From: Minisyncoccota bacterium
Lineage (GTDB): Bacteria > Patescibacteriota > Minisyncoccia > JAHIHE01 > JAGLIN01
NCBI GenBank assembly: GCA_023142995.1
Contig: JAGLIM010000006.1
Span: forward strand, 32,577-96,576
Reading direction: 5' to 3'
Length of the DNA: 64,000 nt
The notes beneath the pieces were generated by a model. The model was not told the origin of the DNA and made no database searches. It saw only the letters and a program-made list of their open reading frames with translations. The translations under genes and the position numbers were made by a program. Positions 23,781-63,556 of the stretch are shown here, one piece after another; the stretch's first letter is position 1, and each line of letters opens with the position of its first letter.

Positions 23781-23925
23781 TGTAGAAACTGTTTTGTCTG
23801 TCCGCCTTGGGAGGGTAAATAGTTTCTGATGTTTTCTAAGTAAATAATATTTATTGATATTTCAAAACAAAAAAATAAAAGCAACTTGCGTTATTTTGTA
23901 GAACAAAATATGCTTGTTGCTTTTT
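23781..23925 (+). repeat. 'GCGGGAAC-hairpin-TTTCTGATGTTTTC' element family, copy C1. It contains the GTCCGCCTTGGGAGGG core.
   Basis: It is paralogous to 58089-58245, 58981-59080 and 63423-63556. Confidence 0.45.
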
Positions 23926-23928
23926 AGT

Positions 23929-24702
23929 TTAAATTTTATAGGTATAAATATATTCTTTTCTTCCTTCGTCGTTCAGACAATAAAGGAGCCCCTGGGAAAA
24001 GTCTATACCTCCATTTGTTTTTGCTGTGGTTTTCTCTATGATTGTTCCTGTGGAGGATACTTTATAGAGAAAATCTTCCTGACTTATATAGAAATAATCA
24101 TTCTTTGTTGTTATTCCCTGAATGTTCTCTATATTTTCACTCAAGGGAATATAGCCAGCGTAGTTAAGATCTGGCAGATCATATTTTCATATTTTACTGT
24201 CATAGAAACTTACAACAAAAACTTGATCGTTACTGACGGTAACTCCAGCAACTTCATGTCCTTGAGCTGAGATGTCATATTTGCCGATATAGCTTAGATC
24301 AGAAGCATCCCAAATCGCAATATGCTGAGATCTGAAATTATTATGATTGTCCCAATATTCTACTGGAATATAAAGCTTCCCGTTATGATAATCTCCGTCT
24401 CCAAGATGGTTTATGCCTCCTCCAATTTCAGAGAAAACATTCCTATTAATATCAATTTCATTCCAATTTTTATCTACCTTTTTGATAAAGTCAGTATGGA
24501 AGAGATAGAAATAAGTTTCGTCAGTTGTTATTCCCTGATGAGCATTTATATCAGGTGATTGCTGTACTAATTCGTACTGACCTACATCTGGATCAATGTT
24601 ATTTTCTTCACTCACACCTATTTGAGGGGAAAGTATGAGAAGAAAAATAACAATTTCTGCTAGGAATATCATTTCTATTAATACTGATTCATTTCTTACC
24701 AT
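23929..24702 (-). pseudogene. Secreted repeat protein interrupted by one in-frame TGA. This is a pseudogene or readthrough candidate.
   Basis: ORFs 24187-24702 and 23929-24144 are in the same frame. They are separated only by the TGA after ...FYDSKI. The repeat QGITT(D/K)..YFY appears on both sides. Confidence 0.5.
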
Positions 24703-24800
24703 TGCTTTTCCTCCTTTTGTTTTTTTGAATGATTTTTTAAATTTTATCTAAGATAATATCATAAAATCAGAGATTTGTCAAGAATATAAGATAGAAAAAA

Positions 24801-25025
24801 TTAAAAAGGTGAAATAATTTCTATTAGAAATCCAAATACTTTTTCTCCAAATAAGATTATTAATATATCAGCAATAGCGATTGTTATCAGAGCAATAGGA
24901 AGTACAAAGTTGTTTGGCCATATAAGATGGATAAATAGAATTGCTAGATCCAGTATAATGCACATAGCAATTATTTCTTCTATTCTGCTGGTTGATTTAG
25001 AGCGTTTTTTATTATTTTTAGACAT
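24801..25025 (-). CDS. Small 2-TM membrane protein, hypothetical.
   Basis: 74-aa ORF with two hydrophobic helices. Confidence 0.3.
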   Translation of the reverse strand: MSKNNKKRSKSTSRIEEIIAMCIILDLAILFIHLIWPNNFVLPIALITIAIADILIILFGEKVFGFLIEIISPF

Positions 25026-25044
25026 ATATTTTATTTGTTAATTA

Positions 25045-26742
25045 TTAATAATTTAAATATTTTATCATATATCCATCAACAAGATCATATTCTAGTTTTC
25101 GATAATAGTTCCTTACTCCTACACCGCTGATGACGGTGATCTTTTTTAAACCGAATTCTGCTTTAGTGATCTTTTCTGCTTCAGCGATTAGTTTTTTTCC
25201 AAGTCCAGTATGTTGGGGCGATTTTTTGCTTTTTGATCTTATAGGAACGAGTTGGCCGTATGTGTGAATTTCGCGGATAATAGAAGCATTTTCAAGAGCA
25301 GGGATAAAAGAATGAACTCCAATCTCGTTAATTCTTAGTCTTAATAAAGAATAGATGTGTTGTCTTTTTTTATCTTCAAAACTTAAAAATATTTCTTTGC
25401 CACCTGAAGCGTTGTAATCTTGGCGGAATAATTTTAAATTATTAACCACCCCTAGCCCCTCCTTTAAAAGGAGGGGATTTTGATTTCTTACTTCCCGGCA
25501 TCTGATACATTTGCAATTCCATCCCTCTTCTTCTGATCTTTTCTTGAGAACTTGTCTTAAATTGGAAACTTTATTTCCAGCGACAATGCTTGTTGATGGA
25601 ATGTCTCTAATAAGGCGGGTAATGCGAACATAATAAGGAACTATTTTTTTGATCTCACAAAGTAATTGAATGAGTTTTTTGTCTGGATATGGTTTGTATT
25701 TGCCAGTTTTAAGCCATTTATAAATAGGAGCATTTTTGACAACCACGCAAGGATAAATTTTCAGCATATCTGGCTGAAAATCGGGATTTGAAAATAATTC
25801 TTTAAACATTGTTAAATCTTTTTTGTAGTTTGATCCTGGTAGATCTGGCATCATATGATAGTTTATTTTAAAGCCAGTTTCTTTTAGTAGCCTTGTCGCT
25901 TTGATCGTTTCGTTAACAGAATGTCCACGTTTGTTAAATTTCAAAACATCATCATAAACACTTTGCACTCCAAGTTCAACTCGCGTTGCTCCAAGTTTTC
26001 TCATTTGTAATATTTCTTTCTCATCAATATAATCAGGACGTGTTTCAAGCGTAAGTCCTACAATTCGATGTGAAGCTTTTTCGTTTATTTTTTGGAGTTG
26101 TTTGAGCGATAAGGCTCTAAGTGGCTTTTGAAGCCACTTAGAGCCTGCGTTGCATGCAGAAAAACATTCTTTTATAAACCAAGTTTGATATTGTTTTGGA
26201 AGATAAGAGAAAGTTCCACCCATTACGATCAATTCGATTTTATCTGTTTTATGTCCAGTAGCTTTAAGTGATCTTAATCTTGCTTGAACTTGTTTATAGG
26301 GATGAAAATCTGTTAAAACTGCCCGCATTACTGCTGGTTCATTTGAGAGATAACTTTTTGGTATACCTTTCTCATTAGGACAAAATTTACAAGTTCCAGG
26401 GCAGGGGTATGGCTTTGTCAGAACTGCAATAATCGCTACACCTGATGAGCTGCGAATATCTTTTGTCATTAAAACTTTTTCAATTTCTTTTTGAAGATTT
26501 CTTTTTGATATTTTTCTATAAGATCTGAGAAGCTCTATATTAGTTGGACAAGGCATTTTATATTTCTTTGAGGCTTTTCTTTTGAGCTTTGAAAGATATT
26601 CTGAAGAAAGTTGTCTTTTTTTGACAGAAACCTTTTCAATAAGTTCGTTGATAATGTATTGGTTAATATTCATAAAATGATTTAGTTTAGATAAGTAAGT
26701 ATAGTGTGTTAATGTAATTTTATCAAGAAAGGCTTCTGGCAA
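25045..26742 (-). CDS. elp3: Elp3-family radical-SAM/GNAT tRNA-modification enzyme, a bacterial Elp3 homologue.
   Basis: Radical-SAM Cys cluster KPYPCPGTCKFCPNEKGIP. C-terminal GNAT HTGLGKKLIAEAEKI. It contains an in-frame copy of the CCCTAGCCCCTCC...GGAGGGG palindromic repeat (KEGLGVVNN). Confidence 0.85.
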   Translation of the reverse strand: MPEAFLDKITLTHYTYLSKLNHFMNINQYIINELIEKVSVKKRQLSSEYLSKLKRKASKKYKMPCPTNIELLRSYRKISKRNLQKEIEKVLMTKDIRSSSGVAIIAVLTKPYPCPGTCKFCPNEKGIPKSYLSNEPAVMRAVLTDFHPYKQVQARLRSLKATGHKTDKIELIVMGGTFSYLPKQYQTWFIKECFSACNAGSKWLQKPLRALSLKQLQKINEKASHRIVGLTLETRPDYIDEKEILQMRKLGATRVELGVQSVYDDVLKFNKRGHSVNETIKATRLLKETGFKINYHMMPDLPGSNYKKDLTMFKELFSNPDFQPDMLKIYPCVVVKNAPIYKWLKTGKYKPYPDKKLIQLLCEIKKIVPYYVRITRLIRDIPSTSIVAGNKVSNLRQVLKKRSEEEGWNCKCIRCREVRNQNPLLLKEGLGVVNNLKLFRQDYNASGGKEIFLSFEDKKRQHIYSLLRLRINEIGVHSFIPALENASIIREIHTYGQLVPIRSKSKKSPQHTGLGKKLIAEAEKITKAEFGLKKITVISGVGVRNYYRKLEYDLVDGYMIKYLNY

Positions 26743-26832
26743 TTATCAAAGATTAGCCATAATAATAAATAGGCAAGTGCTCTAAATCGTGATAAAATTA
26801 TATTAAGAACAAATAATTATTAAGTTAAATAT

Positions 26833-27210
26833 ATGAAAAAAATAATTTCAACAGAAAAAGTTTCAGAAGTGGTAGGTCCATACTCGCAAGCAGTTGAAGC
26901 TGGTGGTTTTGTTTTTTTATCAGGACAAATTCCACTGAAAGTGGACGGAACTATAATTGATGGGGATATTAAAGATCAGACAAAACAAGTGCTTGATAAT
27001 ATCGGAGAAATTCTAAATGCATCTGGATTGAATTATGAAAATGTAGCAAAAGTTACAGTTTACCTTTCTGATATGAGTGATTTTAGAGAAATGAATGAAG
27101 TTTATATTAAATATTTTAAAAAAGATTTTCCTGCTAGGTCAACAATCCAAGTTTCTGAACTTCCAAAAGAAGTCGGCATAGAAATGGATGTGATTGCAGC
27201 GAAAGAATAA
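26833..27210 (+). CDS. ridA: RidA/YjgF-family reactive-intermediate deaminase.
   Basis: 125 aa. GPYSQAV...FLSGQIP...RSTIQV. Confidence 0.9.
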   Translation: MKKIISTEKVSEVVGPYSQAVEAGGFVFLSGQIPLKVDGTIIDGDIKDQTKQVLDNIGEILNASGLNYENVAKVTVYLSDMSDFREMNEVYIKYFKKDFPARSTIQVSELPKEVGIEMDVIAAKE

Positions 27211-27342
27211 GAGAATTTCTTAAAAACTTTGTTTTTATTATAAAAGCTACTGAAAACTATTTTGTTTTTAGTGGTTTTTTTAATGTCTTAAATATGCTAT
27301 AATAAAGTCGATAGAAAATATGCGAAAATTAATATAAACCAA

Positions 27343-27705
27343 ATGATTGCTGAATATTTTGTTAATTTACCAATAAATTTCATCAAGGGAATTATAAATT
27401 TCTTCTCTTTTTGGTATATAATAAGTTCTAGGTCTTTTTGGCATAAAGAAATTGCCTTTATAAAAGGGATTGAAAGAGATATCGGTGTTCTTATAAATTT
27501 AAAGTTGGTGTTTCAGCCGATTTATGGTGATTATACGTATATGGGGAGAGCTATTGGTCCTATTTTTAGATTATCTCGTGTTTTGATTGGTTTTCTTATT
27601 ATGTTAGTTTCAATTATTGTAGTTTTGATGATTTATTTAATTTGGATACTTCTGCCACCAGTTACTTTCTTGATGGTGTTTTTGAATCTAGTTTATGTCT
27701 TTTAA
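27343..27705 (+). CDS. Small membrane protein, hypothetical.
   Basis: Hydrophobic 120-aa ORF directly upstream of the Clp ATPase. Confidence 0.35.
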   Translation: MIAEYFVNLPINFIKGIINFFSFWYIISSRSFWHKEIAFIKGIERDIGVLINLKLVFQPIYGDYTYMGRAIGPIFRLSRVLIGFLIMLVSIIVVLMIYLIWILLPPVTFLMVFLNLVYVF

Positions 27706-27716
27706 TTTAAATTTGA

Positions 27717-30704: not shown

Positions 30705-33700
30705 TTGATTAGATATATAAAAAAACTAATCTTAACTAATATGAAAAACACAAAAACAAAACTATTCCTCCATCTTTTTATCTCAAGTTTCTTTTTGTTT
30801 GGGCTGGTGGGGGTTAGTGAAGCAGCCGATCACAACTGGTATTTCTCAATGTCAGGCGGTGGAAATGTTTGTTCTCAAGTCTCTCCATGCAAGTGGCTTT
30901 CATCAAACCAAGTCGGATATGTAGCAGGGCAAACAACAGCTCAAAACAAAATTGACAGCGTTGGTTCGGACAAGACTGTTAATTTGTATTTTAAGAGGGG
31001 GGATGTTTGGAGTTTTAATACGGATATGGTATCAACAAAAGTTTATTATGGATTACTTGTTAATAGTGATGATCCGACAGTTAATATAGATACTTATGGA
31101 TTAGGTGCAAAGCCGATATTTGACGGAACTGTAACAGATTTTAGTAGTGTACCAAATCACGATCATACCATTACCACAGGTCCGTATAAATGGAACAATA
31201 TTTTTCAATTTAATAGAAATGATTGTTCGGTTAAAAACATACATATAAATGGGATTTACGGGCAGGGTATAGTTCTTGGAGATGCGAGTAATGCTACGGA
31301 TAATTTTACTCTTGAAAGTTCTGATATAACTAATTTCGGTAATTGTGCTATTAGGTCAAGCTCAAAGTATGCAACACGAAACACTACTGTTACTAAAAAT
31401 TTGATACACACAGGACAACAGTTACAACTTTATGGTAAATGGCCCATCATGAATTGGGGTGCAGGGATTATGATAACTCCGCTAAACCATTTTCGTACCC
31501 CTTATGGGAATGTTATTAATTATAATGTCGTATATGACATAGCAGGCGAAGGGATTCATGCTTTTGGTACTACTATTGAGCATAACATTGTTGGTGATAC
31601 GGGTTCAGTTGGTATATTTGTTGCGCCTGATGCTGGGGACGCAACAGATACCATTGTTAGATATAACTTGGTTATAATGAGTGACCTTTTATCGTCTGAC
31701 TATGATAATGATGGTGCTATTGCACACGAAGGAATTGGAATCGCAGATGAAGGTTTTGGTGGGAGTAATGTAAATGCAATAGTAAAAGTTTATGGAAATA
31801 TAGTTATAAACCGGCTTAAAGGTATATTCTTTGCCGCTTATAATGGGAGCGTGGCACCTTGGAAAGAGATACATATTTATAATAATACCATTATTGATTC
31901 TTCGGGGGCTAATATGGTGATTTCAGAACCAGCCCACGACATGGTTGCTGTTGGAAAAGGGTTTATCTATAACAATACTTCCATTTTATACGATATAACG
32001 GGTAGTATTCATGTGGCAGATTGGAGCGATCCGCCAGCTTTAAGTACATATTGGACAATAGAAAACAATCACTTCTGGACAACAGGAGGATCTCCGACAG
32101 TAGATACAGATTGGCAAACCAACATGATCACCACCGACCCCCAACTTACAGGCGAACCTCTCATAGACTGGGACGGTCAATCAGGACCAACCTATTACAA
32201 AGACATTAAATTCAGCGATGTTATTCCCTTGGCAGGATCATCTCTAATCGGTTCAGGTAAAACGCTTGATGCTAGTTATAATAAAACATTTCTAACTCAA
32301 GGAACTGATTTTAGTGCATTACCTAATTTAACTAATTTCACGCTTTCATCCCAGACAGATGGTTCTTGGGATATAGGAGCGGTGGAGATGGCAGTTCCCG
32401 CCGACCACAACTGGTATTTCTCAATGTCAGGCGGTGGAAATGTTTGTTCCCAAGCGGCTCCCTGCAAATGGCTTTCATCAAACCAAGTCGGATATGTAGC
32501 AGGACAAACAACTGCTCAAGACAAAATTGACAGTATTGCTTCGGATAAGATAGTTAATTTGTATTTTAAGAGAGGGGATGTTTGGACGGCAGATACATCA
32601 GCGGTAAATAAAATAAATTGTCACGGACTTCTTGTTTCTGCGACTAACCCAATTATAAATATCAACGCATACGGTTCTGGCAATAAACCTGCTTTTGATG
32701 GTTTGGTTTCAGATTTTTCTACTGCTCCTGCTCATAACAGCACGACTGGGCCGTTGTTTTATAACAGATTTTTTGAGTTCAAGCGCAATAGTTGCAGTAT
32801 ATCAAATATAGAAATTAAAAGAGTTTATGGTAATGCTGTATTTTTAAACCCATCTAATTATTTTACGCTTGATTCTTGCAACATACATAACTTTGGCGCT
32901 GGCGGTATTTCAATATCGTCTGCAGTAGGTGGAAATAATATCACAGTTATAAACAACATTTTTCATACTGGACAAGAGCTATATAGATATGGTTTGCGAT
33001 CTGGATGGGAAGCCGCAATTCAATTAACAACAAAAGGTCATTTATGTGAAGATAATGTTATTAGATATAATGTTGTTTATGATATTTATGGAGAAGGAAT
33101 ACAGTGTGTTAATAGTTTATGCGAATATAATATTGTCGGAGATACAGGATCAATTGCTCTTAATACTTCTAATCATGGATGGGATGCTAAAAAAACTACA
33201 GTTAGATATAATATTGTAACGATGTCTGATTGGGGTTCAAGTATTTATGATACATTAAGTGGATCAAGTCCCGTAGGAGTAAGAGTTTATGACGAACATC
33301 CTGGTGGTAACAATTCAGGAGCAGATATACAAATCTATGGTAATATCATAATAAATACAAGGAACGGGATACAGCTTGGTTCACCAGAAGATCCGGGAAA
33401 TCCTTATGGTTCTGTAAAAATATATAATAATACTTTAGTGGACTGCATATCAAATTGGACTTTTTCACAACCGGAGGAATTTAGCAATGTGCATATTTAC
33501 AACAATTCATCTATTCATTATGACAGGACAGGCGCTCATTCTGTAAATTGGGATATAGCTGCCGGATATAGTGGCTGGGTATTTGACTATAACCATTTTT
33601 ATCCTGTCGATGGAAGTAATACAGTACTTCCCATTTTTGCTTCAAATCAAATCACCACCGACCCCAAACTCATTGGCGAACCAACAATAGACTGGGACGG

Positions 33701-34448
33701 TCAATCAGGAGCAACCTACTACAAAGATATTAAATTCAGCGATGTTATTCCATTAGCAACTTCATCTCTGATCGGTTCAGGTAAAACGCTTGACGCTAGT
33801 TATAATAAAACATTTCTAACTCAAGGAACTAACTTTGATACTCTACCAAACACTCCTAACTTTATGCTTTCATCTCAAACAGATGGTTCTTGGGATATAG
33901 GAGCGGTAGAAGTTGGAGGAGCTATTATTACCTGCGCTTCCCTCGGAGGCACCTGTTGCGCGCCATTTCAAATCTGCCAAGGAGGATCCGCAGCAACTTC
34001 ATCATGTAGTAATGTCTGTTGTGTTGGAGGAACTTGTCAAAATGTAGCTCCACCTCCACCTCCACCACCTCCAACTTGTCAAAGCCAAGGACATAAATGT
34101 TGTTTCTCTTGCCACACAGGACCTCATCCAATATATGATGGTGATTGTGTTGGTGAACGAATATGTTGTGATACTTGTCCTCCTCCTCCAAAAGCTAGTA
34201 TGAAAAACTTTATCTCAGTATTAAATTTCTCTAATCTCGTTGAAAACTTCTTAGTTTGGACACTATCTATTATCGGCTCTTTATCTCTTTTGATAATTGT
34301 TGTCGGAGGAGTGATGTATATTGGTTCTACTGGAGATGAACAAAGAATTGTCACAGCTAAAAGAGCTGTTACTTATGCTATAATAGGATTAGGATTAATT
34401 CTTAGCGCTTATGCTGTGATTATGGTGTTGGGAAAAGTGTTAAATTAA
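30705..34448 (+). CDS. Giant secreted protein. It contains two tandem roughly 525-aa beta-helix repeats, a Cys/Pro-rich module and a C-terminal double-TM tail.
   Basis: Signal peptide. ADHNWYFSMSGGGNVCSQ...IGAVE is duplicated at 30825 and 32400, with about 90% nucleotide identity at the repeat starts. The Cys-rich region reads CCAPFQICQGG...PPPPPPPPTCQ...CCDTCPPPP. The C-terminal TM-loop-TM tail reads VMYIGSTGDEQRIVTAKRAVTYAIIGLGL. Confidence 0.7.
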   Translation: MIRYIKKLILTNMKNTKTKLFLHLFISSFFLFGLVGVSEAADHNWYFSMSGGGNVCSQVSPCKWLSSNQVGYVAGQTTAQNKIDSVGSDKTVNLYFKRGDVWSFNTDMVSTKVYYGLLVNSDDPTVNIDTYGLGAKPIFDGTVTDFSSVPNHDHTITTGPYKWNNIFQFNRNDCSVKNIHINGIYGQGIVLGDASNATDNFTLESSDITNFGNCAIRSSSKYATRNTTVTKNLIHTGQQLQLYGKWPIMNWGAGIMITPLNHFRTPYGNVINYNVVYDIAGEGIHAFGTTIEHNIVGDTGSVGIFVAPDAGDATDTIVRYNLVIMSDLLSSDYDNDGAIAHEGIGIADEGFGGSNVNAIVKVYGNIVINRLKGIFFAAYNGSVAPWKEIHIYNNTIIDSSGANMVISEPAHDMVAVGKGFIYNNTSILYDITGSIHVADWSDPPALSTYWTIENNHFWTTGGSPTVDTDWQTNMITTDPQLTGEPLIDWDGQSGPTYYKDIKFSDVIPLAGSSLIGSGKTLDASYNKTFLTQGTDFSALPNLTNFTLSSQTDGSWDIGAVEMAVPADHNWYFSMSGGGNVCSQAAPCKWLSSNQVGYVAGQTTAQDKIDSIASDKIVNLYFKRGDVWTADTSAVNKINCHGLLVSATNPIININAYGSGNKPAFDGLVSDFSTAPAHNSTTGPLFYNRFFEFKRNSCSISNIEIKRVYGNAVFLNPSNYFTLDSCNIHNFGAGGISISSAVGGNNITVINNIFHTGQELYRYGLRSGWEAAIQLTTKGHLCEDNVIRYNVVYDIYGEGIQCVNSLCEYNIVGDTGSIALNTSNHGWDAKKTTVRYNIVTMSDWGSSIYDTLSGSSPVGVRVYDEHPGGNNSGADIQIYGNIIINTRNGIQLGSPEDPGNPYGSVKIYNNTLVDCISNWTFSQPEEFSNVHIYNNSSIHYDRTGAHSVNWDIAAGYSGWVFDYNHFYPVDGSNTVLPIFASNQITTDPKLIGEPTIDWDGQSGATYYKDIKFSDVIPLATSSLIGSGKTLDASYNKTFLTQGTNFDTLPNTPNFMLSSQTDGSWDIGAVEVGGAIITCASLGGTCCAPFQICQGGSAATSSCSNVCCVGGTCQNVAPPPPPPPPTCQSQGHKCCFSCHTGPHPIYDGDCVGERICCDTCPPPPKASMKNFISVLNFSNLVENFLVWTLSIIGSLSLLIIVVGGVMYIGSTGDEQRIVTAKRAVTYAIIGLGLILSAYAVIMVLGKVLN

Positions 34449-34762
34449 TTAGATAAATAACATTTCTGATGTTGTTCGAAACTGGAATTCTGGTAGAATT
34501 CTGGTAGTCTATTGCTTAATACTAAATACTTAATACTAAAAAAATGCTTAAATTAAGGAAAGAGGGAGAGGGAATGTTTGAATATGTATTGAATATATTC
34601 TTGCCTTTATGGCTTCCAATTAAAGCTATGCAGATTATGATGAAAGAAATGAAGGAAGAAAAAGAGAAAAGGAAAGAAAATGAAGAGAAATAAATTATTT
34701 TGTTAATCATATATTGAGAAAGCGCAGAAGAAACTTTAATTTTAATTAAACTTTAGCAAAAA

Positions 34763-44228: not shown

Positions 44229-45764
44229 ATGTCAATATCAAATCAACTCAATCAATACAAGAATAAAAACATTCATATTGTCGGGATCGGTGGGGCGGAG
44301 GGAAGTGCAATCGCGGAGTTTTTAGTGTCTCAGGGAGTCTCTTCGGTCACTGGACATGATTTTTCTTCTAAAGCGGATTTCAAAAAAACTTTTTATAATA
44401 CTCATTTAAGTCTAAAACCAAAAGAAAGAGAAGGAGCATTAGATCATCTTTTGGATTTGCCTATTAGAATGAATTTTAAAGGTCATTATTTGGAAGGAAT
44501 TGACCAAGCGGATATGGTTTTTGTTTCGCAAGTTTGGTTTAAATACCCGCAAAATATGCCGATTTTAGAGAATTTGAAAGATAATGGAGTTCCATTCAAG
44601 ACTATTACTAATTTATATTTTGAACTAGCGCCATGTCCCATTATTTCTGTAACAGGAACAAACGGCAAGACAACGACAGCGAGATTAATCAATAGTATTT
44701 TTAATGCTTGGGGGGTTAAAGTCTTTTTCGCTGGGAACGATCGTCAAAATGTTCAGGTTCTAAATAGGCTTAATGAAATGAAAAAAGAAGATATTTTAAT
44801 TCTTGAAACAAGTAGTACTCAACTATTATTAAACTCTGAAATAAGTCCGTATATTGGAGTTATCACAAATATTACACCTAATCATATTGATGATCATGGC
44901 AGTTTTGAAAATTATATTGAAGCAAAAAAGAATTTGATTAGGTATCAAAAGAAAGGGGATTTTGCGGTTTTAAACGAAAAGTTGAAAGTTTATAAAGTAC
45001 ATAAAGCTATAAAGTCAAGGATATTTTGGTTTAGTGGAAAAAAAGAGTTGGAAGAAGGGTGTTTTGTAAAAAATGGGAAGATTATGATAAGAGAAAATGA
45101 TAAATGCAGGTTTGCAAAAAATCTCCACATCAACACACCCCTAGCCCCTCTCAAGAGGGGAATCGAGATAATGAAGCCAGCAATTGTTTGTAATATAGAT
45201 GATATAAAAATTCCAGGCAAGCATAATCTTGAAAATGTTTTATCGGCAGTTTCTGTTACTTATCTTTATGGTGTAGATTCGAAAATAATAAAAAAAGGCA
45301 TATCAGAATATACCGGTATAAAGCATAGATTAAAACTTCTTTACAATATAGATAGAATCAAATATTATGATGATACACAAGCTACCACTCCTGAGGCGAC
45401 AATTGCGGGTATTGGTTCTTTTGATGGTGATATAATATTGCTTGCAGGTGGAGATAATAAGGGAATGAATTATAAAGAATTGGCGGAGAAAATTAATGAT
45501 AAAGTGAAATTTCTGATGTTATTTTCTGGTAATGCTTCAGATGAAATTGAAGAGTTGATTGATAAAGATAAAGTAGATTTTATAAGAGTGAAAGATTTTG
45601 CTAATGCAATTGAAGAATTAAAAAAATATTATAAAAAAACTGATCCTATAAAAAACGGTACAGTCTTAATTTCTCCCGCGGCAGCTTATTTTTATTCAAA
45701 ATTTGTAGAAAATTCGGGAAAGAGTTTAAGAGAATGGATCAAATCAGTATCTAGTATCAAGTAG
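44229..45764 (+). CDS. murD: Mur ligase, probably MurD (UDP-MurNAc-L-Ala:D-Glu ligase). It contains an in-frame partial repeat element.
   Basis: ISVTGTNGKTTT P-loop, HNLENVLSAV and GGDNKGMNY. It sits after mraY. The segment NLHINTPLAPLKRGIEIM is encoded by a repeat-element fragment at about 45106-45175. Confidence 0.7.
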   Translation: MSISNQLNQYKNKNIHIVGIGGAEGSAIAEFLVSQGVSSVTGHDFSSKADFKKTFYNTHLSLKPKEREGALDHLLDLPIRMNFKGHYLEGIDQADMVFVSQVWFKYPQNMPILENLKDNGVPFKTITNLYFELAPCPIISVTGTNGKTTTARLINSIFNAWGVKVFFAGNDRQNVQVLNRLNEMKKEDILILETSSTQLLLNSEISPYIGVITNITPNHIDDHGSFENYIEAKKNLIRYQKKGDFAVLNEKLKVYKVHKAIKSRIFWFSGKKELEEGCFVKNGKIMIRENDKCRFAKNLHINTPLAPLKRGIEIMKPAIVCNIDDIKIPGKHNLENVLSAVSVTYLYGVDSKIIKKGISEYTGIKHRLKLLYNIDRIKYYDDTQATTPEATIAGIGSFDGDIILLAGGDNKGMNYKELAEKINDKVKFLMLFSGNASDEIEELIDKDKVDFIRVKDFANAIEELKKYYKKTDPIKNGTVLISPAAAYFYSKFVENSGKSLREWIKSVSSIK

Positions 45765-51014: not shown

Positions 51015-51017
51015 AAA

Positions 51018-52558: not shown

Positions 52559-52609
52559 AGGTTTTTAATATTTTTATTTAATTTTTAAATTATTTTTGCG
52601 TATATTTTT

Positions 52610-54073: not shown

Positions 54074-55129
54074 ATGCCAATCAAAATTCAGGAAAATATT
54101 TCACTTTCAAAATACACTTCATTTAAGATCGGTGGTCCAGCGAGGTATTTTTGTGTGGTAAAAGATATTGATGAAATAAAAGAAGCATTAGAATTTACGG
54201 GGAAGAAAAAATTGAAAGTTTTTGTTTTAGGAGGCGGTAGTAATTTATTAATAGCAGATAAAGGGTTCGATGGACTAGTGATACGAATTCAAAATTCAAA
54301 ATTCAAAATTCAAAATTCTAATATTATTTGCGGAAGTGGACTATCTTTAGCTAAATTAGTATTTGAATTAGCAGAAGCTGACCTAACGGATATTGAATGG
54401 GCAGCGGGTATTCCAGGAACTGTTGGTGGGGCGATTGCGAATAATGCGGGGGCTTTTGGAAAATGTATGGAGGATGTTGTAAAAGAAGTTGAAGTTTTAG
54501 AGATTAATCGCTGGCTCCATAGTCCCGATAGGGCTGTGGAGCCTATTGCACAAAAAGGTTCCACATCAACACATCTCTTACCCTCTTCCTCCCAAGGCGG
54601 ACAAGCAAGAGGGGAATTATCACAATGGAACCAGCGTATGTTTACTAACAAACAATGCCAATTTTCTTATCGCAATAGCATTTTCAAAAAAGAAAAAAAG
54701 TATATTATCTTGGACGCTGTTTTGAAATTAGAAAAAGGGGATCAAGAAAAAAACAAAAAAACAATTGCAGAAATTCTAGAATCAAGAAGAGAAAAACAGC
54801 CGTTAGAGCATCCCAGTGCGGGGAGCGTGTTTAAAAATCCAGTTGTTGATGGTGCTCATTTAGAAAAATTAAAAAAAGAATTTCCAGAGTTAAATGAAAT
54901 CGTTAAAAATAATACTATTTCTGCTGGTTGGATGATCGAACAAATTGAAGGATTAAAGGGGAAAAAGATCGGTGGCGCAATGGTTTCAGAAAAGCATTGT
55001 AATTTTATTGTTAATGTAGAAAATGCTAAAGCAGAAGATGTGATCATACTTATCAGTCTGATCAAACAAAAAATCAGAAGCCATTTCGGGATTCAATTAA
55101 AAGAAGAAATTGAATATATTGGATTTTAG
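54074..55129 (+). CDS. murB: MurB (UDP-N-acetylenolpyruvoylglucosamine reductase). It carries two in-frame repeat insertions.
   Basis: KYTSFKIGGPARYF, VLGGGSNLL, GIPGTVGGAIANNAG and SAGSVFKNP. There is a heptamer array at 54285-54318 and a palindromic element at 54511-54634. Confidence 0.85.
   Translation: MPIKIQENISLSKYTSFKIGGPARYFCVVKDIDEIKEALEFTGKKKLKVFVLGGGSNLLIADKGFDGLVIRIQNSKFKIQNSNIICGSGLSLAKLVFELAEADLTDIEWAAGIPGTVGGAIANNAGAFGKCMEDVVKEVEVLEINRWLHSPDRAVEPIAQKGSTSTHLLPSSSQGGQARGELSQWNQRMFTNKQCQFSYRNSIFKKEKKYIILDAVLKLEKGDQEKNKKTIAEILESRREKQPLEHPSAGSVFKNPVVDGAHLEKLKKEFPELNEIVKNNTISAGWMIEQIEGLKGKKIGGAMVSEKHCNFIVNVENAKAEDVIILISLIKQKIRSHFGIQLKEEIEYIGF
54511..54634 (+). repeat. Palindromic repeat element inserted in-frame in murB, with terminal inverted repeats CTGGCTCCAT / ATGGAACCAG.
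   Basis: It encodes WLHSPDRAVEPIAQKGSTSTHLLPSSSQGGQARGELSQWNQR. It contains the GCTCCATAGTCCCGATAGGGCTGTGGAGC hairpin and a reversed GTCCGCCTTGGGAG core. Confidence 0.65.
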
Positions 55130-55332: not shown

Positions 55333-56634
55333 ATGCTTGGAATTTTTGAAAAATATTATAATTTATATTCTTGGTTTCCAAGAATGGAAAAAACCACCTT
55401 TGATGTTTCATTGGTGCATTTTTTATTGATGTTTGGATATAAACTCTTTTCGTTATATTATCCACTTTTTTTAATTTCAATTGGATTTTCAATTCTAAAT
55501 ATAGGAAGTATATATCTGCTTACATATTCTGTGATCGCTATTTCTTCTGTGATCATAAATTTCTATATTCATAGATTTAATCCTTCAAAAATCGCGGCGC
55601 TTGGGATCTTCGGATATGGAATTTTCGCGCTATTGATGATTATAAGTCATAATTTAATGGTTTTTTATATTGCTCAGATAATTCTTGGTTTTTCTGCGGC
55701 GGCGTGGCTGGTATCTTTGAAATTGATTTTAATGAAAGCTAAAACTCAAAGCAAAAATCGCAGTTTCGGGTGGTTTTATTCAATGCCTCATTATGCGGCA
55801 GCGGTTGCTCCAGCTATTGGCGGATTGATTATTTGGAAGTTTGGTTTCATAGGAGTTTTTACTTTAAGTGTTTTAATTCAGTTTGCTAATGCGTTTTATG
55901 CTTATAAAAAGTTGAATGGAAAATCCCATTGTTGGCTCCATAGTCCCGATAGGGCTGTGGAGCCTATTGCGCAAAAAGGCTCCACATTAACACACCCCTT
56001 ACCTCTCTCAAGAGGGGACTCGCCACAATGGAGCCAACGCATCAGAAAAAACTACAGCGAGATTCTAAAGATCATAAGATCAGATAAAGCTTTTATTTCA
56101 ATTTTGATCTCTCTGTTTTTTGTTTTAATTCTTGGAGGAATTTATAGGGCATTTTTTATTTTGTTCTTAAAAGATATGTCTTTTTCTCAAGAGGAGATAA
56201 TCAAATTTATCATTTTAGCTTCAGTTGCTTATTTTCCTCTTTCGGTATTAGTTATAAAAATAATTGAGAAATTAAAAAGTAGAAAAATTATTAGTGGAGG
56301 AATATTAGTTGAAGGAACGGCAACAATTGTTTTTGGAATTTTTGCAAATATAATGAACCTATTCGGATTATTTATGATTATGATAATTGATTCTCTTGGA
56401 GCATTGGCGCTTGGAAGCGGGAAAAGCGCTTTGCTTTCCAAGAAATTGAAAAATTATAAAGAGGAAGCATCAACAATAGATACTGTTTTAACGACTCTTG
56501 GTCCAGCGATTGGTGCTTTTGTTGGAGGCATTGCGATCTCATATATTGGGTTTGGGAATACATTTTTGTTTGCGGGAATAATTGTGTTTGTAATGGGGAT
56601 TGCTTCTTATTCTTTTAAGCTGAACGGTCATTGA
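55333..56634 (+). CDS. MFS-type transporter. It carries an in-frame palindromic-element insertion in the central loop.
   Basis: 12 TM helices arranged 6+6. The central loop contains WLHSPDRAVEPIAQKGSTLTHPLPLSRGDSPQWSQR. Confidence 0.7.
   Translation: MLGIFEKYYNLYSWFPRMEKTTFDVSLVHFLLMFGYKLFSLYYPLFLISIGFSILNIGSIYLLTYSVIAISSVIINFYIHRFNPSKIAALGIFGYGIFALLMIISHNLMVFYIAQIILGFSAAAWLVSLKLILMKAKTQSKNRSFGWFYSMPHYAAAVAPAIGGLIIWKFGFIGVFTLSVLIQFANAFYAYKKLNGKSHCWLHSPDRAVEPIAQKGSTLTHPLPLSRGDSPQWSQRIRKNYSEILKIIRSDKAFISILISLFFVLILGGIYRAFFILFLKDMSFSQEEIIKFIILASVAYFPLSVLVIKIIEKLKSRKIISGGILVEGTATIVFGIFANIMNLFGLFMIMIIDSLGALALGSGKSALLSKKLKNYKEEASTIDTVLTTLGPAIGAFVGGIAISYIGFGNTFLFAGIIVFVMGIASYSFKLNGH
55932..56037 (+). 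repeat. Palindromic repeat element, 106 bp, with perfect 10-bp terminal inverted repeats TTGGCTCCAT / ATGGAGCCAA. It is inserted in-frame in the MFS gene.
   Basis: The same 5' hairpin module occurs in the murB copy and at 58821-58848. The 3' half ACACACCCCTTACCTCTCTCAAGAGGGGA matches 45120-45170, 55290-55330 and 12724-12746 (reversed). Confidence 0.7.
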
Positions 56635-56792
56635 CGCATATTTGTTATCATGCTATTTTAAATTTAGATAATAGATTATATGAGAACTATGCAAAACTAT
56701 AAACAACAATATACAATAGAAGCTATGGAAATGATGATGGAATTACTGCATTAGTAGTTTGTTTTTAGTTTGTTTGCAAAGTAAATTAAGAA

Positions 56793-56822
56793 GAAACTGC
56801 TAAAGGCAGTTTTTTGTTTTGT
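56793..56822 (+). terminator. Rho-independent terminator.
   Basis: GAAACTGC-taaag-GCAGTTT followed by TTTTGTTTT. Confidence 0.5.
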
Positions 56823-56869
56823 GAATTTTATAAAAATAAAAATTATTAAGATCAAAGAGGTGGTTTATA

Positions 56870-57499
56870 ATGACGGAATCAGAAGCAAGATCGTTTTTGT
56901 TTTCTCCAAAAAGAAAAGAGAAATTAACAAAAACTGAGGAGAGTTTAGCACATTCCTGTGAAGCTTATATCTCTACGCAGTTTAATATAACTGTGTGTGA
57001 GATGGAAAGAAATCTTTCTTTATGCACAGAAGAGAGAAAACAGTTGGATAAAAAGTTATTTACTGCGAAACAAGATTTACAGCAAGCTTGGGAACATTCT
57101 GAAGAGTGCTTAGGACTTAGTCGTTTTAAGTGGTCTGAGCAACTTAGAAGAACTGTACGCAAGACGGATAGAGAAATTTCTTTATGCATTAAAGAACTCA
57201 GGCAAATCCAGAATCTATATTTGGAAAAAATATTTGAAATTCAAATGATTAAAAAGGAGTTGAGATCATTTGAGTCTTCAAGAAGAGGAATATCTGGTAA
57301 GCTTGAAAATGACATTAAGGAACTTTTGTTTGCACAAGAAATTTATGATATTCAAGTTTCAGATGGTGTGCTCAAGGTAATGATAGATATATTAAAAAGT
57401 GGGAGAAAGATTACTAGCGGTGCCAATATTTGTCATGGAGATTGCGTGAAATGTCAAAATAAAAACTGTCTAAAAATAGATAGTATAAAAACAGATTGA
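56870..57499 (+). CDS. Coiled-coil protein with a C-terminal Cys cluster, hypothetical.
   Basis: CHGDCVKCQNKNC tail. No family recognised. Confidence 0.45.
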   Translation: MTESEARSFLFSPKRKEKLTKTEESLAHSCEAYISTQFNITVCEMERNLSLCTEERKQLDKKLFTAKQDLQQAWEHSEECLGLSRFKWSEQLRRTVRKTDREISLCIKELRQIQNLYLEKIFEIQMIKKELRSFESSRRGISGKLENDIKELLFAQEIYDIQVSDGVLKVMIDILKSGRKITSGANICHGDCVKCQNKNCLKIDSIKTD

Positions 57500-57630
57500 G
57501 AGATGTAATAAATCTCTCTCTTTTTTTATTCTAAAATTCTAATTTTGTTAATATGATTATATGATATTTCTCTTGATAAATACAAAATCTATGCTATTAT
57601 GAATTGTAGTTAAATAATAACAAAAACAAA

Positions 57631-58053
57631 ATGAATATTATTATAAAAGGTACAAATCTAGAGTTACACGAGGATTTAAAGGCTTATGCTAATGAAAAGA
57701 TCGGTGGATTGAAAAAATTCATTGAAAATGATAACATTAACGAAAATAGTATTATAGCAAGAGTTGAGCTTGCGAAAACCACACAACATCATCAACAAGG
57801 AGATATATATAAAGCGGAAGTTAATTTGCAATTTCCAGGAAAAATGATCAGGAGTGTTGATGAAAGTGATGATATTTACAAATCAATTGATAAAGTAAAA
57901 GACGAGCTTAGGGGAATGATAACGAGCTATAAAGATGAAAAAATGACAAAGACAAGAAGAGGAGCAAGAATGATAAAAAGATTAAAAGGAATTTCTCCGC
58001 TTGCTTGGGCAAAAGGGGAATTTAGGAAATTTGGTCTCAGAAAAAAGAGATAA
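57631..58053 (+). CDS. hpf: Ribosome hibernation promoting factor / RaiA family.
   Basis: MNIIIKGTNLELHEDLKAYANEKIGGLKKF...ARVELAKT...YKAEVNLQFPG. Confidence 0.85.
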   Translation: MNIIIKGTNLELHEDLKAYANEKIGGLKKFIENDNINENSIIARVELAKTTQHHQQGDIYKAEVNLQFPGKMIRSVDESDDIYKSIDKVKDELRGMITSYKDEKMTKTRRGARMIKRLKGISPLAWAKGEFRKFGLRKKR

Positions 58054-58088
58054 AAATGATGTTTTTATAATAGTTATCTTGTAGGAAT

Positions 58089-58245
58089 TTTTGCGGGAAC
58101 GGATTTGCCTGTCCGCCTTGGGAGGGTAATCCGTTTCTGATGTTTTGAAAATAAGTAAAATTATATTGCAAATTTTATTTTTGTAAAAACGAAAAATGAA
58201 ATTTCAAAACAAAAGGAACTGTTTGTAAAATAGTTCCCACAAAAT
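58089..58245 (+). repeat. 'GCGGGAAC-hairpin' element, copy C2, with GTCCGCCTTGGGAGGG in the hairpin loop.
   Basis: TTGCGGGAACGGATTTGCCTGTCCGCCTTGGGAGGGTAATCCGTTTCTGATGTTTTG...GGAACTGTTTGTAAAATAGTTCC. Confidence 0.45.
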
Positions 58246-58272
58246 ATAAGAGGTAAATAAATGAATGAATGA

Positions 58273-58641
58273 ATGAATAAATTAACAAATGAACAACTAG
58301 TAAAGATGAAAAAATGGAAAAGAATAGACATTTTTATTATTCGTGTTATTTTGATTTGGTTTTTGTTTTCAATAATAATAATTTTTTGTTTGCCTGTTTC
58401 TTATGAAAGATTTGGTGAAGTGTGTAAATTTGTGTTTTTTGCTAATTGTATTTTACTTACAATGGAAATAATGCATCATAATTTTTTTAGATGTCCGTGT
58501 TGTGGTGCTTACCAAAAACTAGGACAGCTTAATTGTATTCATCCATATTTTGTTAATTCTTTTCCTAAATTTCCTTTAAGGTGTCGAAAATGTGATGTTT
58601 TGTTTCAATACGAATCTGAAGTTTTGGAGTCAGATTTCTAA
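58273..58641 (+). CDS. Membrane protein with a zinc-ribbon, hypothetical.
   Basis: Two TM helices followed by CPCCGAYQK...RCRKCDV. Confidence 0.4.
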   Translation: MNKLTNEQLVKMKKWKRIDIFIIRVILIWFLFSIIIIFCLPVSYERFGEVCKFVFFANCILLTMEIMHHNFFRCPCCGAYQKLGQLNCIHPYFVNSFPKFPLRCRKCDVLFQYESEVLESDF

Positions 58642-58820
58642 TTAACATATACATTTTACTTTATAACTTTATTCACCCAGTTAAATTGCTTTGCACTTCA
58701 CTTTAGTGAAGATTTAACAGGATAAAATTTTAACTTTAGTTGAGTTGGGTAAAAGTGGAATTTAAGAAGATTAGGAGGAATAGAGATAAGAGATAGAAAG
58801 CATTTTTGGAACTCTCGTTA

Positions 58821-58848
58821 GCTCCATAGTCCCGTAGGGCTGTGGAGT
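58821..58848. repeat. Solo copy of the GCTCCATAGTCCCGTAGGGCTGTGGAG hairpin module.
   Basis: It matches the 5' module of the intragenic elements in murB and the MFS gene. Confidence 0.5.
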
Positions 58849-58980
58849 CTGAATGCAAGCTGGTGATATTTCTTAAAATTTATTTTTTATACAAATCCTT
58901 GCATTAAAGGTTCGCTGTGTGCTGGTTAAGGATTCTGTCCTGAACCAATAACAAAAATATGCGCTTGCCAAGTTAAATTT

Positions 58981-59080
58981 TTGCGGGAACTGTTTTGTAA
59001 ACAGTTTCTAATGTTTTCTAAGCAAATAAATATTGTTGCATTTTCAAAACATTAGAAACTGGTTAAAAAAACCAGTTTCT
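58981..59080 (+). repeat. 'GCGGGAAC-hairpin' element, copy C3.
   Basis: TTGCGGGAACTGTTTTGTAAACAGTTTCTAATGTTTTCTAAGC...AAACTGGTTAAAAAAACCAGTTTC. Confidence 0.45.
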
Positions 59081-59166
59081 GTGATGAAGAAATTTTTGAC
59101 AATAAAAAAAGAGACTCGGTTTCTCTGAAATGCGGTAGAGATACCGAGCCGTATTGTTGTTATTTT

Positions 59167-59364
59167 TTATTTGTTCCTTTTTTCAATCATTCTTATAATT
59201 GTGAAAAGGAGGAATGTTATACCTATAACGGTTGCAACACCATATAGGAAACATTCTATTCCTAACACTATGTCTATTATGCACAGTAGACATAGTATTA
59301 TAATGTCTATGAAGAAAATAGCTGTTTCTATTTTCTTCCTGTCTATTGTTATTTGCATTATCAT
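59167..59364 (-). CDS. Small 2-TM membrane peptide (65 aa), hypothetical.
   Basis: Its start ATG overlaps the TGA of an upstream 38-aa ORF as ATGA. There is a bidirectional hairpin terminator at 59118-59166. Confidence 0.3.
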   Translation of the reverse strand: MIMQITIDRKKIETAIFFIDIIILCLLCIIDIVLGIECFLYGVATVIGITFLLFTIIRMIEKRNK

Positions 59365-59477
59365 TTCCTTCTTACTTTTCTTTCTCCGTGATACTCAGCT
59401 CTTTTTCTTTCATTCTCTTGCATCGCTAATTCTAGCTCTCCATCATTATTTGCGACCTCTTCTAGAAATGCTGTCAT
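59361..59477 (-). CDS. Small hydrophilic peptide (38 aa) translationally coupled to the downstream membrane peptide. Not in the ORF track.
   Basis: MTAFLEEVANNDGELELAMQENERKRAEYHGERKVRRK. The minus strand is strongly purine-rich across 59365-59570, which looks mRNA-like. Confidence 0.25.
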   Translation of the reverse strand: MTAFLEEVANNDGELELAMQENERKRAEYHGERKVRRK

Positions 59478-59621
59478 TACTGTGTTTGCAATTTCGTCTC
59501 TTCTTTACATATTTATTCCTCTTGTTCTTCTTATATCGCCTCTCATATTCTTTTCCTCCTTAACTAAATTATCAAATAACATTCAAATACTGACTAACTA
59601 ATTTATCATAAAATTAAAACT

Positions 59622-62276: not shown

Positions 62277-62317
62277 CATTTTAACATGTTAACATTTTAA
62301 CATTTTAACAAAAGTTT

Positions 62318-62347
62318 GTCATTCCTGCGGAGGCAGGAATCCAGTTA
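62318..62347 (+). repeat. 'TGTCATTC + hairpin' unit (TGTCATTCCTGCGGAGGCAGGAATCCAGTT). An inverted partner lies at 63316-63350.
   Basis: The two copies flank the dehydrogenase gene in inverted orientation. Related units follow + gene stops at 9801, 20263 and 22929, and there is another at 63391-63420. Confidence 0.45.
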
Positions 62348-62378
62348 ATTTCAATAAACAATATTTTTCATTGACATT

Positions 62379-63284
62379 ATGCAAATAGTAATAATACGAA
62401 ATTTTGATTTTACGCCAAAGCAAATAGAACGCTTAAAGAAATTAGGCGATGTTAAATTTTATGGTGACTCTCCTATTACCAAAGAAGAATGGTTAAATAT
62501 AGCGAAAGAAGCGGATATTATTTGTAGTGGAAATTTTGGCTTAAAATATAACTTAAATAAATTAAAAAATGTTTTTATAACATATCCCTTTGTTGCTCTT
62601 GATGGTATTAATATTGAACAGTTGAAAAGAAATAATATTACATTGGCAAATAGTCCTGGTTGTAATAAAGATGCTGTGTCAGAATGGGTTATATCTATGA
62701 TCTTAAATTTATTTAGAAAATTTCCCCAGTTTATTAAAAATAATAATTTGCCAAAAGGTGAGATGCCAGAAATAACACAGAGTATTAAAAATAAAAATAT
62801 AACTATTTTAGGAAAAGGTAATATTGGATCAAGAGTTGGTAAATTATGCGAAACTTTTGGAATGAATATTGTATTTTTTGAAAGAGGAGATAATTTATTA
62901 GAGAAGGTTAAGAATGCGGATATGATAGTTAATTGTTTGAGTCCAAACGAAGGCACGGTTAATTTGCTAAATAAAAATTTCTTTTTCTCTTTAAAAAAAG
63001 ATTCTTATTTTATAACTTTTACAAAAAAAGAAATATATAATTCTGATGCAATGATAGAAGCTTTGGATAAAAATATTTTAAGCGGAGTTGCTGATGATTG
63101 TGCAAGTGAAATAGTTGGAGATATTTATAATGATTATTATCAAAAATTATTAAAGCACAAAAAGATTTTAGTAACTCCGCATATTGCGTGGAGCGCTGAT
63201 AGTTCTATCTACAATGGAAATGAAATGGTTATTGATAATATTGAAGCGTGGATAAATGGATGTCCGCAAAATCTGATTGAATAA
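62379..63284 (+). CDS. D-isomer-specific 2-hydroxyacid dehydrogenase family (NAD-binding).
   Basis: ITILGKGNIGSRVGKL Rossmann motif and C-terminal VTPHIAWS. Confidence 0.8.
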   Translation: MQIVIIRNFDFTPKQIERLKKLGDVKFYGDSPITKEEWLNIAKEADIICSGNFGLKYNLNKLKNVFITYPFVALDGINIEQLKRNNITLANSPGCNKDAVSEWVISMILNLFRKFPQFIKNNNLPKGEMPEITQSIKNKNITILGKGNIGSRVGKLCETFGMNIVFFERGDNLLEKVKNADMIVNCLSPNEGTVNLLNKNFFFSLKKDSYFITFTKKEIYNSDAMIEALDKNILSGVADDCASEIVGDIYNDYYQKLLKHKKILVTPHIAWSADSSIYNGNEMVIDNIEAWINGCPQNLIE

Positions 63285-63422
63285 AAGATTACGAAAAATA
63301 TCACTTAATTGAGACAAACTGGATTCCCGCCTCCGCGGGAATGACAGGTTTTGTCTTGTGAAGTAAATAATAGATAAAACCAAAAATACAAAAGATCCTG
63401 AGACAAGGATGACAAAATTTTA

Positions 63423-63556
63423 AGCGGGAACGGATTTGCAATCCGTTTCTAATGTTTTGAAAGCAGGTTAAATTGTATTATGAATTGTGTTTATATAAAA
63501 AACGCAAAACGAAACTTAAAAACAAAAAAACTGGTTTCAAACCAGTTCTCGCTAGT
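63423..63556 (+). repeat. 'GCGGGAAC-hairpin' element, copy C4.
   Basis: AGCGGGAACGGATTTGCAATCCGTTTCTAATGTTTTGAAAGC...AAACTGGTTTCAAACCAGTTCTCGC. Confidence 0.45.

Follow-up and report, generated by a model that had tools for sequence, protein, structure and literature searches.

The pneumococcal SPRITE repeats are terminator-like and enriched at gene 3' ends and at convergent sites, and they have neither an insertion sequence (IS) partner nor a detectable target-site duplication (PMC3049150). REPINs are inverted doublets accompanied by decayed singlets (PMC3116915), and Correia elements carry promoters and occur in long and short forms (PMC2649163, PMC10969869). Here, we analysed a 64,000-nt stretch of contig JAGLIM010000006.1 from a Patescibacteria genome (hereafter, the window), which has a GC content of about 31% and bears nearly all its genes on the plus strand. 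An initial annotation had reported four copies of a small hairpin-framed element in it and read them as a possible family of small RNA (sRNA) genes. Our analysis indicates that the four loci are probably copies of a short, non-coding, interspersed palindromic repeat of a Patescibacteria clade (Paceibacterota/Parcubacteria metagenome-assembled genomes, MAGs), with arms that look like transcription terminators. As a family this repeat is new, but bacterial repeats of its kind are already known.

All four reported copies are present, far beyond chance, and their limits were refined to 23782–23925 (copy A), 58093–58240 (B), 58983–59082 (C) and 63424–63552 (D). They lie downstream of plus-strand genes in one orientation, as had been described, and A and B align with 80% identity over 75 nt (family D13). 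The proposal of a real homologous family was borne out. The terminus GCGGGAAC occurs five times in the window against 0.30 expected, and three of these occurrences start B, C and D; the start thought to be shared by all four copies does not extend to A, which begins with GTAGAAAC. The occurrences of GCGGGAAC at 3647 and 32394 (minus strand) fall in coding sequence and were attributed to chance. With up to one mismatch, TTTCTRATGTTTT was found nine times against 2.1 expected, five of them exact. One-mismatch motif matches at 10744, 36076 and 45510 were likewise set aside as chance matches in coding sequence, and a match at 34463 is intergenic and lacks the arm structure. A fifth exact match of TTTCTAATGTTTT, overlooked previously, lies on the minus strand inside C (59046–59058). 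The 19-nt block CTGTCCGCCTTGGGAGGGT, reported for two copies, is indeed found in A (23798–23816) and B (58109–58127), exactly 3' of the 3-nt loop of hairpin 1, and is missing from the corresponding point in C and D.

Inverted-repeat analysis revealed a symmetry that the initial annotation had missed: B, C and D are two-fold symmetric, the right part being the inverted left part. The complete unit reads GCGGGAAC - hairpin - GTTTCTRATGTTTTG - AT-rich centre - CAAAACAnnAGGAAC - hairpin - GTTCCCGC, and its two inverted arms of about 36–38 nt each consist of an 8-nt terminus (GCGGGAAC), a 10–12 bp stem with a 3-nt loop and an inward-pointing U-rich tail. The inverted repeats of B (TTTTGCGGGAAC and GTTCCCACAAAA) are 92% complementary, as is a 25-nt pair in C. 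The elements are AT-rich, 100–148 nt long and without an open reading frame (ORF), and they end in terminal inverted repeats (GCGGGAAC...GTTCCCGC), which agrees in both size, below about 300 bp, and ends with MITEs (miniature transposable elements bearing inverted repeats). Both arms are found in every complete copy, with the terminus GTTCCCGC or a variant of it differing by one or two transitions; the AAC...GTT cores are invariant, and an asymmetry between the left (CTRATG) and right (CAAAAG) sides is kept in all long forms. A covariance model of the arm, R1, built from 20 arms, matches each strand once, about 100 nt apart, in B, C and D (47–63 bits), and likewise gives both-strand pairs in L004, L005, L007, L009, L011, L014 and L022, where L-numbers denote loci from the genomes and metagenomes of relatives that were compared with the window. 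In A, only the left arm matches well (31.5 bits), and the right remnant scores 18 bits. The perfect first hairpin described for the family is not perfect in A, where it holds one G-T pair, and the second hairpin is common to B, C and D, with A carrying a different, nested hairpin at 23877–23925. The motif GTTTCTRATGTTTTG, previously taken to be single-stranded, has its complement (CAAAACAnnAGRAAC) in the right arm, and RNAalifold pairs arm with arm, making the whole element one long hairpin. A reading of the TGATG/TAATG motifs as mini-ORFs or stop-start signals was rejected, as no consistent ORF was found and no upstream gene ends within the element.

Among described repeats, SPRITE is the nearest functional analogue. 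Both are small AT-rich interspersed repeats with a stem and a U-rich tract, located near gene 3' ends and at convergent sites and flanked by simple A/T runs; neither has an identifiable IS partner or a demonstrable target-site duplication, and for both, co-option as terminators is proposed. The two show no sequence similarity and belong to different phyla, and SPRITE consists of one 18-bp duplex plus a tail, whereas the Patescibacteria element is a doublet of two inward-facing 10–12 bp hairpins with an AT-rich centre and GCGGGAAC termini. With REPIN/BIME repeats (PMC3116915, PMC3337134), it shares the inverted doublet with a spacer, the folding of the whole unit as a long hairpin, singlets that are mostly more decayed and long persistence within lineages. 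It is unrelated to them in sequence and, unlike them, has no GTAG-type 5' motif and no RAYT (Y1 transposase) in the sequence examined, and its units have U-rich tails and a consistent left/right asymmetry, with four copies in 64 kb. Correia repeat enclosed elements of Neisseria resemble it in size (100–155 bp), in inverted-repeat ends, in having long and short forms told apart by an internal segment and in internal sigma-70-like promoter sequences; their transcript forms a long duplex, and they can influence neighbouring genes. They share no sequence with it, however, and have 26-bp inverted repeats, a TA duplication and a location mostly upstream of genes, whereas the Patescibacteria element has no visible duplication, each of its arms is a hairpin and its copies follow stop codons. 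Canonical intrinsic terminators, finally, have the same 10–12 bp stem, 3-nt loop and U-rich tail 30–140 nt past stop codons, but in the element the primary sequence is conserved even at non-pairing positions, the hairpins are paired face to face and the left U-tract is interrupted (UGAUGUUUUG).

The pairing of the arms is reflected in their variation. In the 20 arms, 97.7% of the cells are paired and 4 of 11 pairs have changed on both sides, with compensatory stem variants (GGATT/AATCC, TGTTT/AAACA, TGGTT/AACCA, GGGTT/AACCC and TATTT/AAATA) and covarying pairs at 9:23 (UA/GC) and 13:21 (UA/AU/GC), while slid controls were only 37–67% paired. The observed covariation was reached by none of 500 shuffles, and the plus strand of the element folds better in 10 of 10 complete elements, though both figures overstate independence because the aligned copies are homologous, which weighs against our interpretation. 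Hairpin 1 is a true base-paired structure, as had been proposed. Folds of single sequences give either two local hairpins and a central stem or the long hairpin, with plus-strand z values from −3.5 to −7.3. Left arms fold at −10.6 to −25.4 kcal/mol on the plus strand vs −5.6 to −13.0 on the minus, a gain of 5–12 kcal/mol that is due to G-U pairing in the basal part of the left-arm stem (GGGAAC with GUUUCU). Hairpin 1 forms better on the strand that is sense for the upstream gene and so probably acts at the RNA level.

Each arm, when read inward, shows a stem and then a U-rich tail, which is UGAUGUUUUG or UAAUGUUUUG on the left and UUUUGUUUUG on the minus strand on the right, and has the shape of an intrinsic terminator, with arm free energies of −10 to −16 kcal/mol. 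The right-arm tail on the minus strand is canonical, and a consensus scan flagged C-left and D-left on the plus strand and C-right and D-right on the minus strand as a stem with a T-rich tail. The left arm lies past the stop codon of a co-oriented gene in seven of the eight scorable cases (A, B, D, L004, L008, L009 and L011), L007 being an exception or uncertain. A, L011 and C (with its small minus-strand ORFs) have a convergent neighbour on the right, and in these cases it is the right arm that faces it. The association with terminators contained in the initial annotation held up. Transcription arriving from either side would meet a stem and Us and stop, so that the element would work as an inward-facing double terminator. 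Its left arm would serve as the intrinsic terminator, or as a 3' stabilising hairpin, of the upstream co-oriented gene, and its right arm would stop convergent or antisense transcription. We put the chances that the arms actually terminate transcription at about even.

The AT-rich centre of B (58148–58204) contains, on the minus strand, a sigma-70-like sequence directed towards the left arm (TTTACA-16-TATAAT, 58187..58160; 11 of 12 matches), which is the best promoter match in a 14-kb scan. At the homologous position, minus-strand matches of 9 of 12 occur in L005, in L007 and in D (TTTATA-16-TACAAT, 63499..63472, in the centre at 63460–63516), and matches of this grade are common in such AT-rich DNA (83 found vs 70 expected), a further point against our interpretation. 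No such site was found in L004, L011 or the short forms. It is a possibility that the internal minus-strand promoter is functional; if real, it would drive transcription across the left arm to the upstream gene's 3' end or, in L007, towards a minus-strand ORF. A plus-strand internal promoter (TTGTAT-15-TATAAA) was also considered and rejected, as it has no T at −7 and a short spacing; the minus-strand reading fits better but is weak.

Copies outside the window were sought by scanning an exact 22-base pattern against one genome per species and then against metagenomes. The genome scan returned 13 loci, and the seven with a hairpin gap of 13–15 nt were all in Patescibacteria/Paceibacterota/Parcubacteria MAGs (one labelled Saccharibacteria); the metagenome scan added one new copy. 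Matches in Spirochaetes, Pyrinomonadaceae, Ruminococcaceae, Ectobacillus, Clostridium and gut contigs have long non-hairpin gaps within coding DNA and were regarded as chance. The element is dispersed, with four copies in the 64-kb window and others in at least seven further MAGs, beside unrelated genes (hpf, secD, a class I aminoacyl-tRNA synthetase gene, obg, rpoC, a cation-efflux gene and a DUF559 gene), and the 40 nt outside it are unrelated between copies. Long forms of 129–148 nt (L004, L005, L007, L011, L022 and window copies B and D) and short forms of about 100 nt (C, L009 and L014) were found. These subfamilies cut across genomes: C and L014 share 90.6% identity over 96 nt, and L005 and L007 are similar to B. 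Conservation of the element also exceeds that of nearby coding DNA, B and L007 being 88–93% identical where secA and hpf are 79–84% identical.

Single arms were found as well: left only in L027, L029, L031 and window copy A, right only in L030 and L008. They score 26.9–53.2 bits vs 46.8–64.3 for paired arms, with an overlap limited, in this small sample, to the two best lone arms. Syntenic loci of relatives, obtained via hpf homologues (annotated as Patescibacteria, Paceibacterota or 'Pacebacteria'), add a history to this pattern. Past hpf, there is a lone left arm in L027 (53 bits), a diverged one in L029 (29 bits) and, in both L007 and L028, an unrelated bidirectional hairpin; L026 shows none of the three. 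L031 likewise carries the dehydrogenase gene that precedes D and keeps the left arm of D at the same junction (14799–14837), but in place of the right part it has a small gene on the minus strand that brings its own terminator, and L030 has a lone right arm (5820–5857) at the same distance as that of D from the homologous TTTGACAA promoter. Neither arm was found upstream of secD in L007, L026, L028, L029 or L032. As these comparisons suggest, copies can be old at a locus and vertically inherited, because the junctions of D are kept in L031 and L030 and the left arm past hpf in L027 and L029. Lone arms arise when the partner arm is lost or replaced, and the same account is given of REPIN singlets (PMC3116915). 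The family would have reached its many unrelated intergenic sites through some form of copying, in the manner of MITEs or REPINs, and would afterwards have persisted for long at individual loci, decaying into lone arms once the other arm was lost or replaced.

The spacers hpf-secA (58054–59621) and secA-secD (62277–63680) are hot spots of variable gene content when compared with L007 and L026–L032. The former holds various small ORFs and the latter a 2-hydroxyacid dehydrogenase, CN-hydrolase, Fic/RhuM, phosphatases and hydrolases, or nothing. A promoter-like block upstream of secD (ATTTGACAAT..ACAATTCTAATATAAATTTAATCTTATA, 63571–63599) is strongly conserved in L007, L028, L029, L030 and L031, and in L030 it lies upstream of an inserted Fic gene. 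A GC-rich hairpin (GGATTCCCGC-CTCC-GCGGGAATGACA) is also conserved near secD (window 63322–63347, L026 13442–13467, L008 2906–2930). Its stem reads like joined element termini (GTTCCCGC + GCGGGAAC), and it may be a collapsed element or a coincidence.

Copy by copy, A stands between an HD-domain gene and a minus-strand ORF. Its left arm (23782–23836, plus strand; R1 E-value 6e-6) is composed of GTAGAAAC, a TGTTT/AAATA hairpin and GTTTCTGATGTTTTC, the hairpin being an 11-nt inverted repeat, 91% complementary, with the CTGTCCGCCTTGGGAGGGT insert in its loop. In the centre and degenerate right part that follow (23837–23925), TTTCAAAACAAAAAAA resembles the start of a right arm and there is no GTTCCCGC end; R1 gives only 18.2 bits on the minus strand at 23860–23889, and the fold shows the replacement nested hairpin, AAAAGCAAC...GTTGCTTTT around TATTTTGT/ACAAAATA. 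B and C share one neighbourhood, with the order hpf, B, ORF122, C, small minus-strand ORFs and secA. The left arm of B (58093–58147, plus strand; R1 40.5 bits) starts 40 nt past the hpf stop codon (58053) and consists of GCGGGAAC, a GGATT/AATCC hairpin with the 19-nt insert and GTTTCTGATGTTTTG; it folds at −25.4 kcal/mol on the plus strand vs −13.0 on the minus. Its right arm (58205–58240) reads CAAAACAAAAGGAAC, hairpin and GTTCCCAC on the plus strand and matches R1 on the minus strand with 52.5 bits (58202–58240), where the stem followed by UUUUGUUUUG is terminator-like. Directly after B, at 58260–58277, a run of (AATG)4 provides four overlapping ATG codons at the start of ORF122, which could make this a slippage-prone start region. 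C, a short form of 100 nt, is a near-perfect palindrome (left arm 58983–59018, right arm 59045–59082; R1 63.1 bits on the plus and 48.9 on the minus strand; fold z = −7.3) with two terminator-like arms, at a site where plus-strand ORF122 converges with the small minus-strand ORFs. D lies between the 2-hydroxyacid dehydrogenase gene (stop at 63284) and secD. Its left arm (63424–63459, plus strand; 62.5 bits), with GCGGGAAC, a GGATT/AATCC hairpin and GTTTCTAATGTTTTG, is terminator-like, and its right arm (63517–63552; 46.8 bits on the minus strand, where it is terminator-like) reads TAAAAACAAAAAAAC, a TGGTT/AACCA hairpin and GTTCTCGC on the plus strand and lies 17 nt upstream of the conserved secD promoter TTTGACAAT...TATAAAT. 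A further match at 12768–12806 (plus strand; GTGGGTT-TATA-ACCCGC + TGTTTTTGTTTTGAAA; 26.9 bits, E-value 1e-4), past an ABC-auxiliary gene (stop at 12640) and beside a copy of another palindromic family, is possibly a lone diverged arm or an ordinary terminator.

Besides the two points already mentioned, several observations count against a terminator-armed dispersed repeat. The left-arm tail UGAUGUUUUG is interrupted, a weaker U-tract than that of a textbook terminator. No target-site duplication was seen at the 10 complete copies, where the flanks share no direct repeat and are only rich in T to the left and in A to the right. Neither a parent IS nor a transposase was found: Pfam scans of approximately 30 window ORFs gave no Y1/HUH transposase, nor was one present in the precomputed Pfam families of the gene calls at 47.6–64 kb, of the continuation in L002 or of the related loci, which cover a part of each genome. 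D is absent upstream of secD in L007, L028 and L029, where the flanks are too diverged to define a clean empty site and gene content differs, and the persistence of its two junctions in different relatives, like that of the hpf left arm, is a pattern of age at a locus. The near-identical strains L001–L003 showed no polymorphism of copies. We can only infer the mobility of the family, because no target-site duplication, transposase partner or clean empty site was found. The sole IS of the window is probable, at 13286–14759: it contains a 433-aa ORF (13387–14688) with a weak integrase-core (rve_3) match, inverted repeats of 26–32 nt (13286–13311 and 14734–14759) and flanking direct repeats TTCCAATAATCAAAAT. 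It was discarded as the parent, as its inverted repeats are unrelated to the GCGGGAAC family.

The same persistence at loci would fit ordinary, vertically inherited intrinsic terminators or insulators that were never mobile and are alike by local duplication or convergence. The window, L027 and L029 each have an arm at the 3' end of the orthologous hpf, the junctions of D are conserved in L031 and L030, and the shape GAAAC...GTTT(T/C)TTGTTTTG recurs in other window terminators, such as those at 56791–56815 and 12768–12806. We regard this explanation as unlikely, given that unrelated loci in different species have nearly identical tails, parts of the centre and 8-nt termini, although these termini do not pair, that the element is conserved beyond nearby coding DNA (the comparison of B with L007), that its doublet architecture has sharp ends and that convergence leaves the conserved GCG/CGC outside the stem unexplained.

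Considered quite unlikely is a long-lived, REPIN-like replicator of the candidate phyla radiation (CPR), moved by an unrecognised mobilising enzyme and kept as a strand-specific insulator made up of terminator, antisense-directed promoter and terminator. A and B, which belong to different subfamilies, carry the identical 19-nt GC-rich mini-hairpin CTGTCCGCCTTGGGAGGGT at the same loop position, and it is also the apex of a second palindromic family. If the replicator existed, CTGTCCGCCTTGGGAGGGT would point to hairpin-loop-targeting insertion or gene conversion that shuffles modules between repeat families.

The proposal that the copies are independently transcribed sRNA genes, or that the internal minus-strand promoter gives rise to a short antisense RNA crossing the left arm and entering the upstream gene at its 3' end, appears improbable. 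The conserved structure with its covariation, the left/right asymmetry of all long forms, the orientation bias with strand-specific stability and the minus-strand promoter-like site at the same position in B, D, L005 and L007 would all suit it. Nevertheless, conservation sets in exactly at GCGGGAAC and the 40 nt upstream of it differ from copy to copy without any relation, which leaves no conserved promoter; the plus-strand 3' hairpin is followed by CGCAAAA or similar, without a U-run; and no Rfam family matches (none in the whole window at gathering score with Rfam 15). An independent sRNA gene, as read in the initial annotation, is thus not supported. Neither would a minus-strand transcript find a terminator inside the element, and the short forms lack the promoter region. 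That relatives have copies reduced to either arm alone also speaks against the sRNA interpretation, and the initial annotation had itself named truncated copies among what would refute it. An Rfam E-value scan of 58000–59200 gave only chance-level matches below gathering score that resemble miRNA precursors, which reflect the long hairpin, and there are no tRNA or tmRNA genes in the window.

Hairpin recombination sites (attC-like or dif-like) bounding exchangeable gene cassettes are highly improbable: the elements do lie at the variable-gene hot spots hpf-secA and secA-secD and in the rpoB-rpoC gap in L014, the close relatives L004 and L008 (a shared 399-aa protein 97.5% identical, surrounding DNA 91–97%) differ in the genes left of the element, with homology resuming about 10 nt before it, and the AAC...GTT cores are invariant, but the ends CGGGAAC/GTTCCCG misfit the attC consensus cores (R'' RYYYAAC and R' GTTRRRY), a loop of 3 nt leaves too little room for the core spacer of a tyrosine recombinase, no copy adjoins an integrase (L032 has a serine recombinase, with no element near it) and conservation is far above that among attC sites.

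Other repeats surround the element. The second palindromic family (GGCTCCATAGTCCCGATAGGGCTGTGGAGCC ... CCCCTCTCAAGAGGGG, with the apex TTGCyTGTCCGCCTTGGGAGGr) occurs in the window at 12670–12740, 45114–45189, 54507–54643, 55928–56046 and approximately 58800–58850, and also in other Patescibacteria MAGs (L004 at about 3421, 4330–4440 and 4830–4880; L008 at about 7517). Two of its copies are inside long ORFs (murB, 54074–55129, and an MFS gene, 55333–56634), which recalls the Rickettsia palindromic elements. That this family shares the core GTCCGCCTTGGGAGG with the element, as the initial annotation had noted, was confirmed by matches with one mismatch each at 12704 (plus) and 54587 (minus), giving four matches against 0.02 expected; recombination between the families, which it had deduced from this, would be a further step. 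In L009, at about 3930–4010 on the minus strand, a tRNA-like GGAGAGGTGCCTGAGTGGTTG... precedes GTCCGCCTTGGGCGG, which is the 19-nt core of A and B in a form with a perfect stem. A third, intergenic repeat family (D4–D7; 4895–5063, 9833–10040, 10922–11071, 20321–20530 and 63342–63406) has units of 65–100 nt, its best-conserved copies being 82–91% identical, and one partial copy lies just upstream of D. Elsewhere in the window, a 1247-aa ORF (30705–34448) contains internal direct repeats about 1.5 kb apart, 86–91% identical over 187–260 nt. The right third of the window is 99.9% identical to DAOVUG010000002.1 (MAG GCA_030632705.1) and to two metagenome scaffolds in ENA.

Patescibacteria (CPR) genomes are very small, about 1 Mb, and, to our knowledge, their non-coding DNA is almost unstudied; we found nothing relevant in the literature on MITEs or palindromic repeats in Patescibacteria/CPR. 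The finding opens no new class of mechanism. The window indicates that small palindromic repeats of at least three families are present in a Patescibacteria clade. One of the families would supply ready-made terminator hairpins at gene ends, conserved beyond the neighbouring genes. In these MAGs, the arm model may serve as an annotation tool that reduces false sRNA or CRISPR-like calls and marks likely transcript ends, and the element may serve as a marker for rearrangement hot spots such as hpf-secA and secA-secD.

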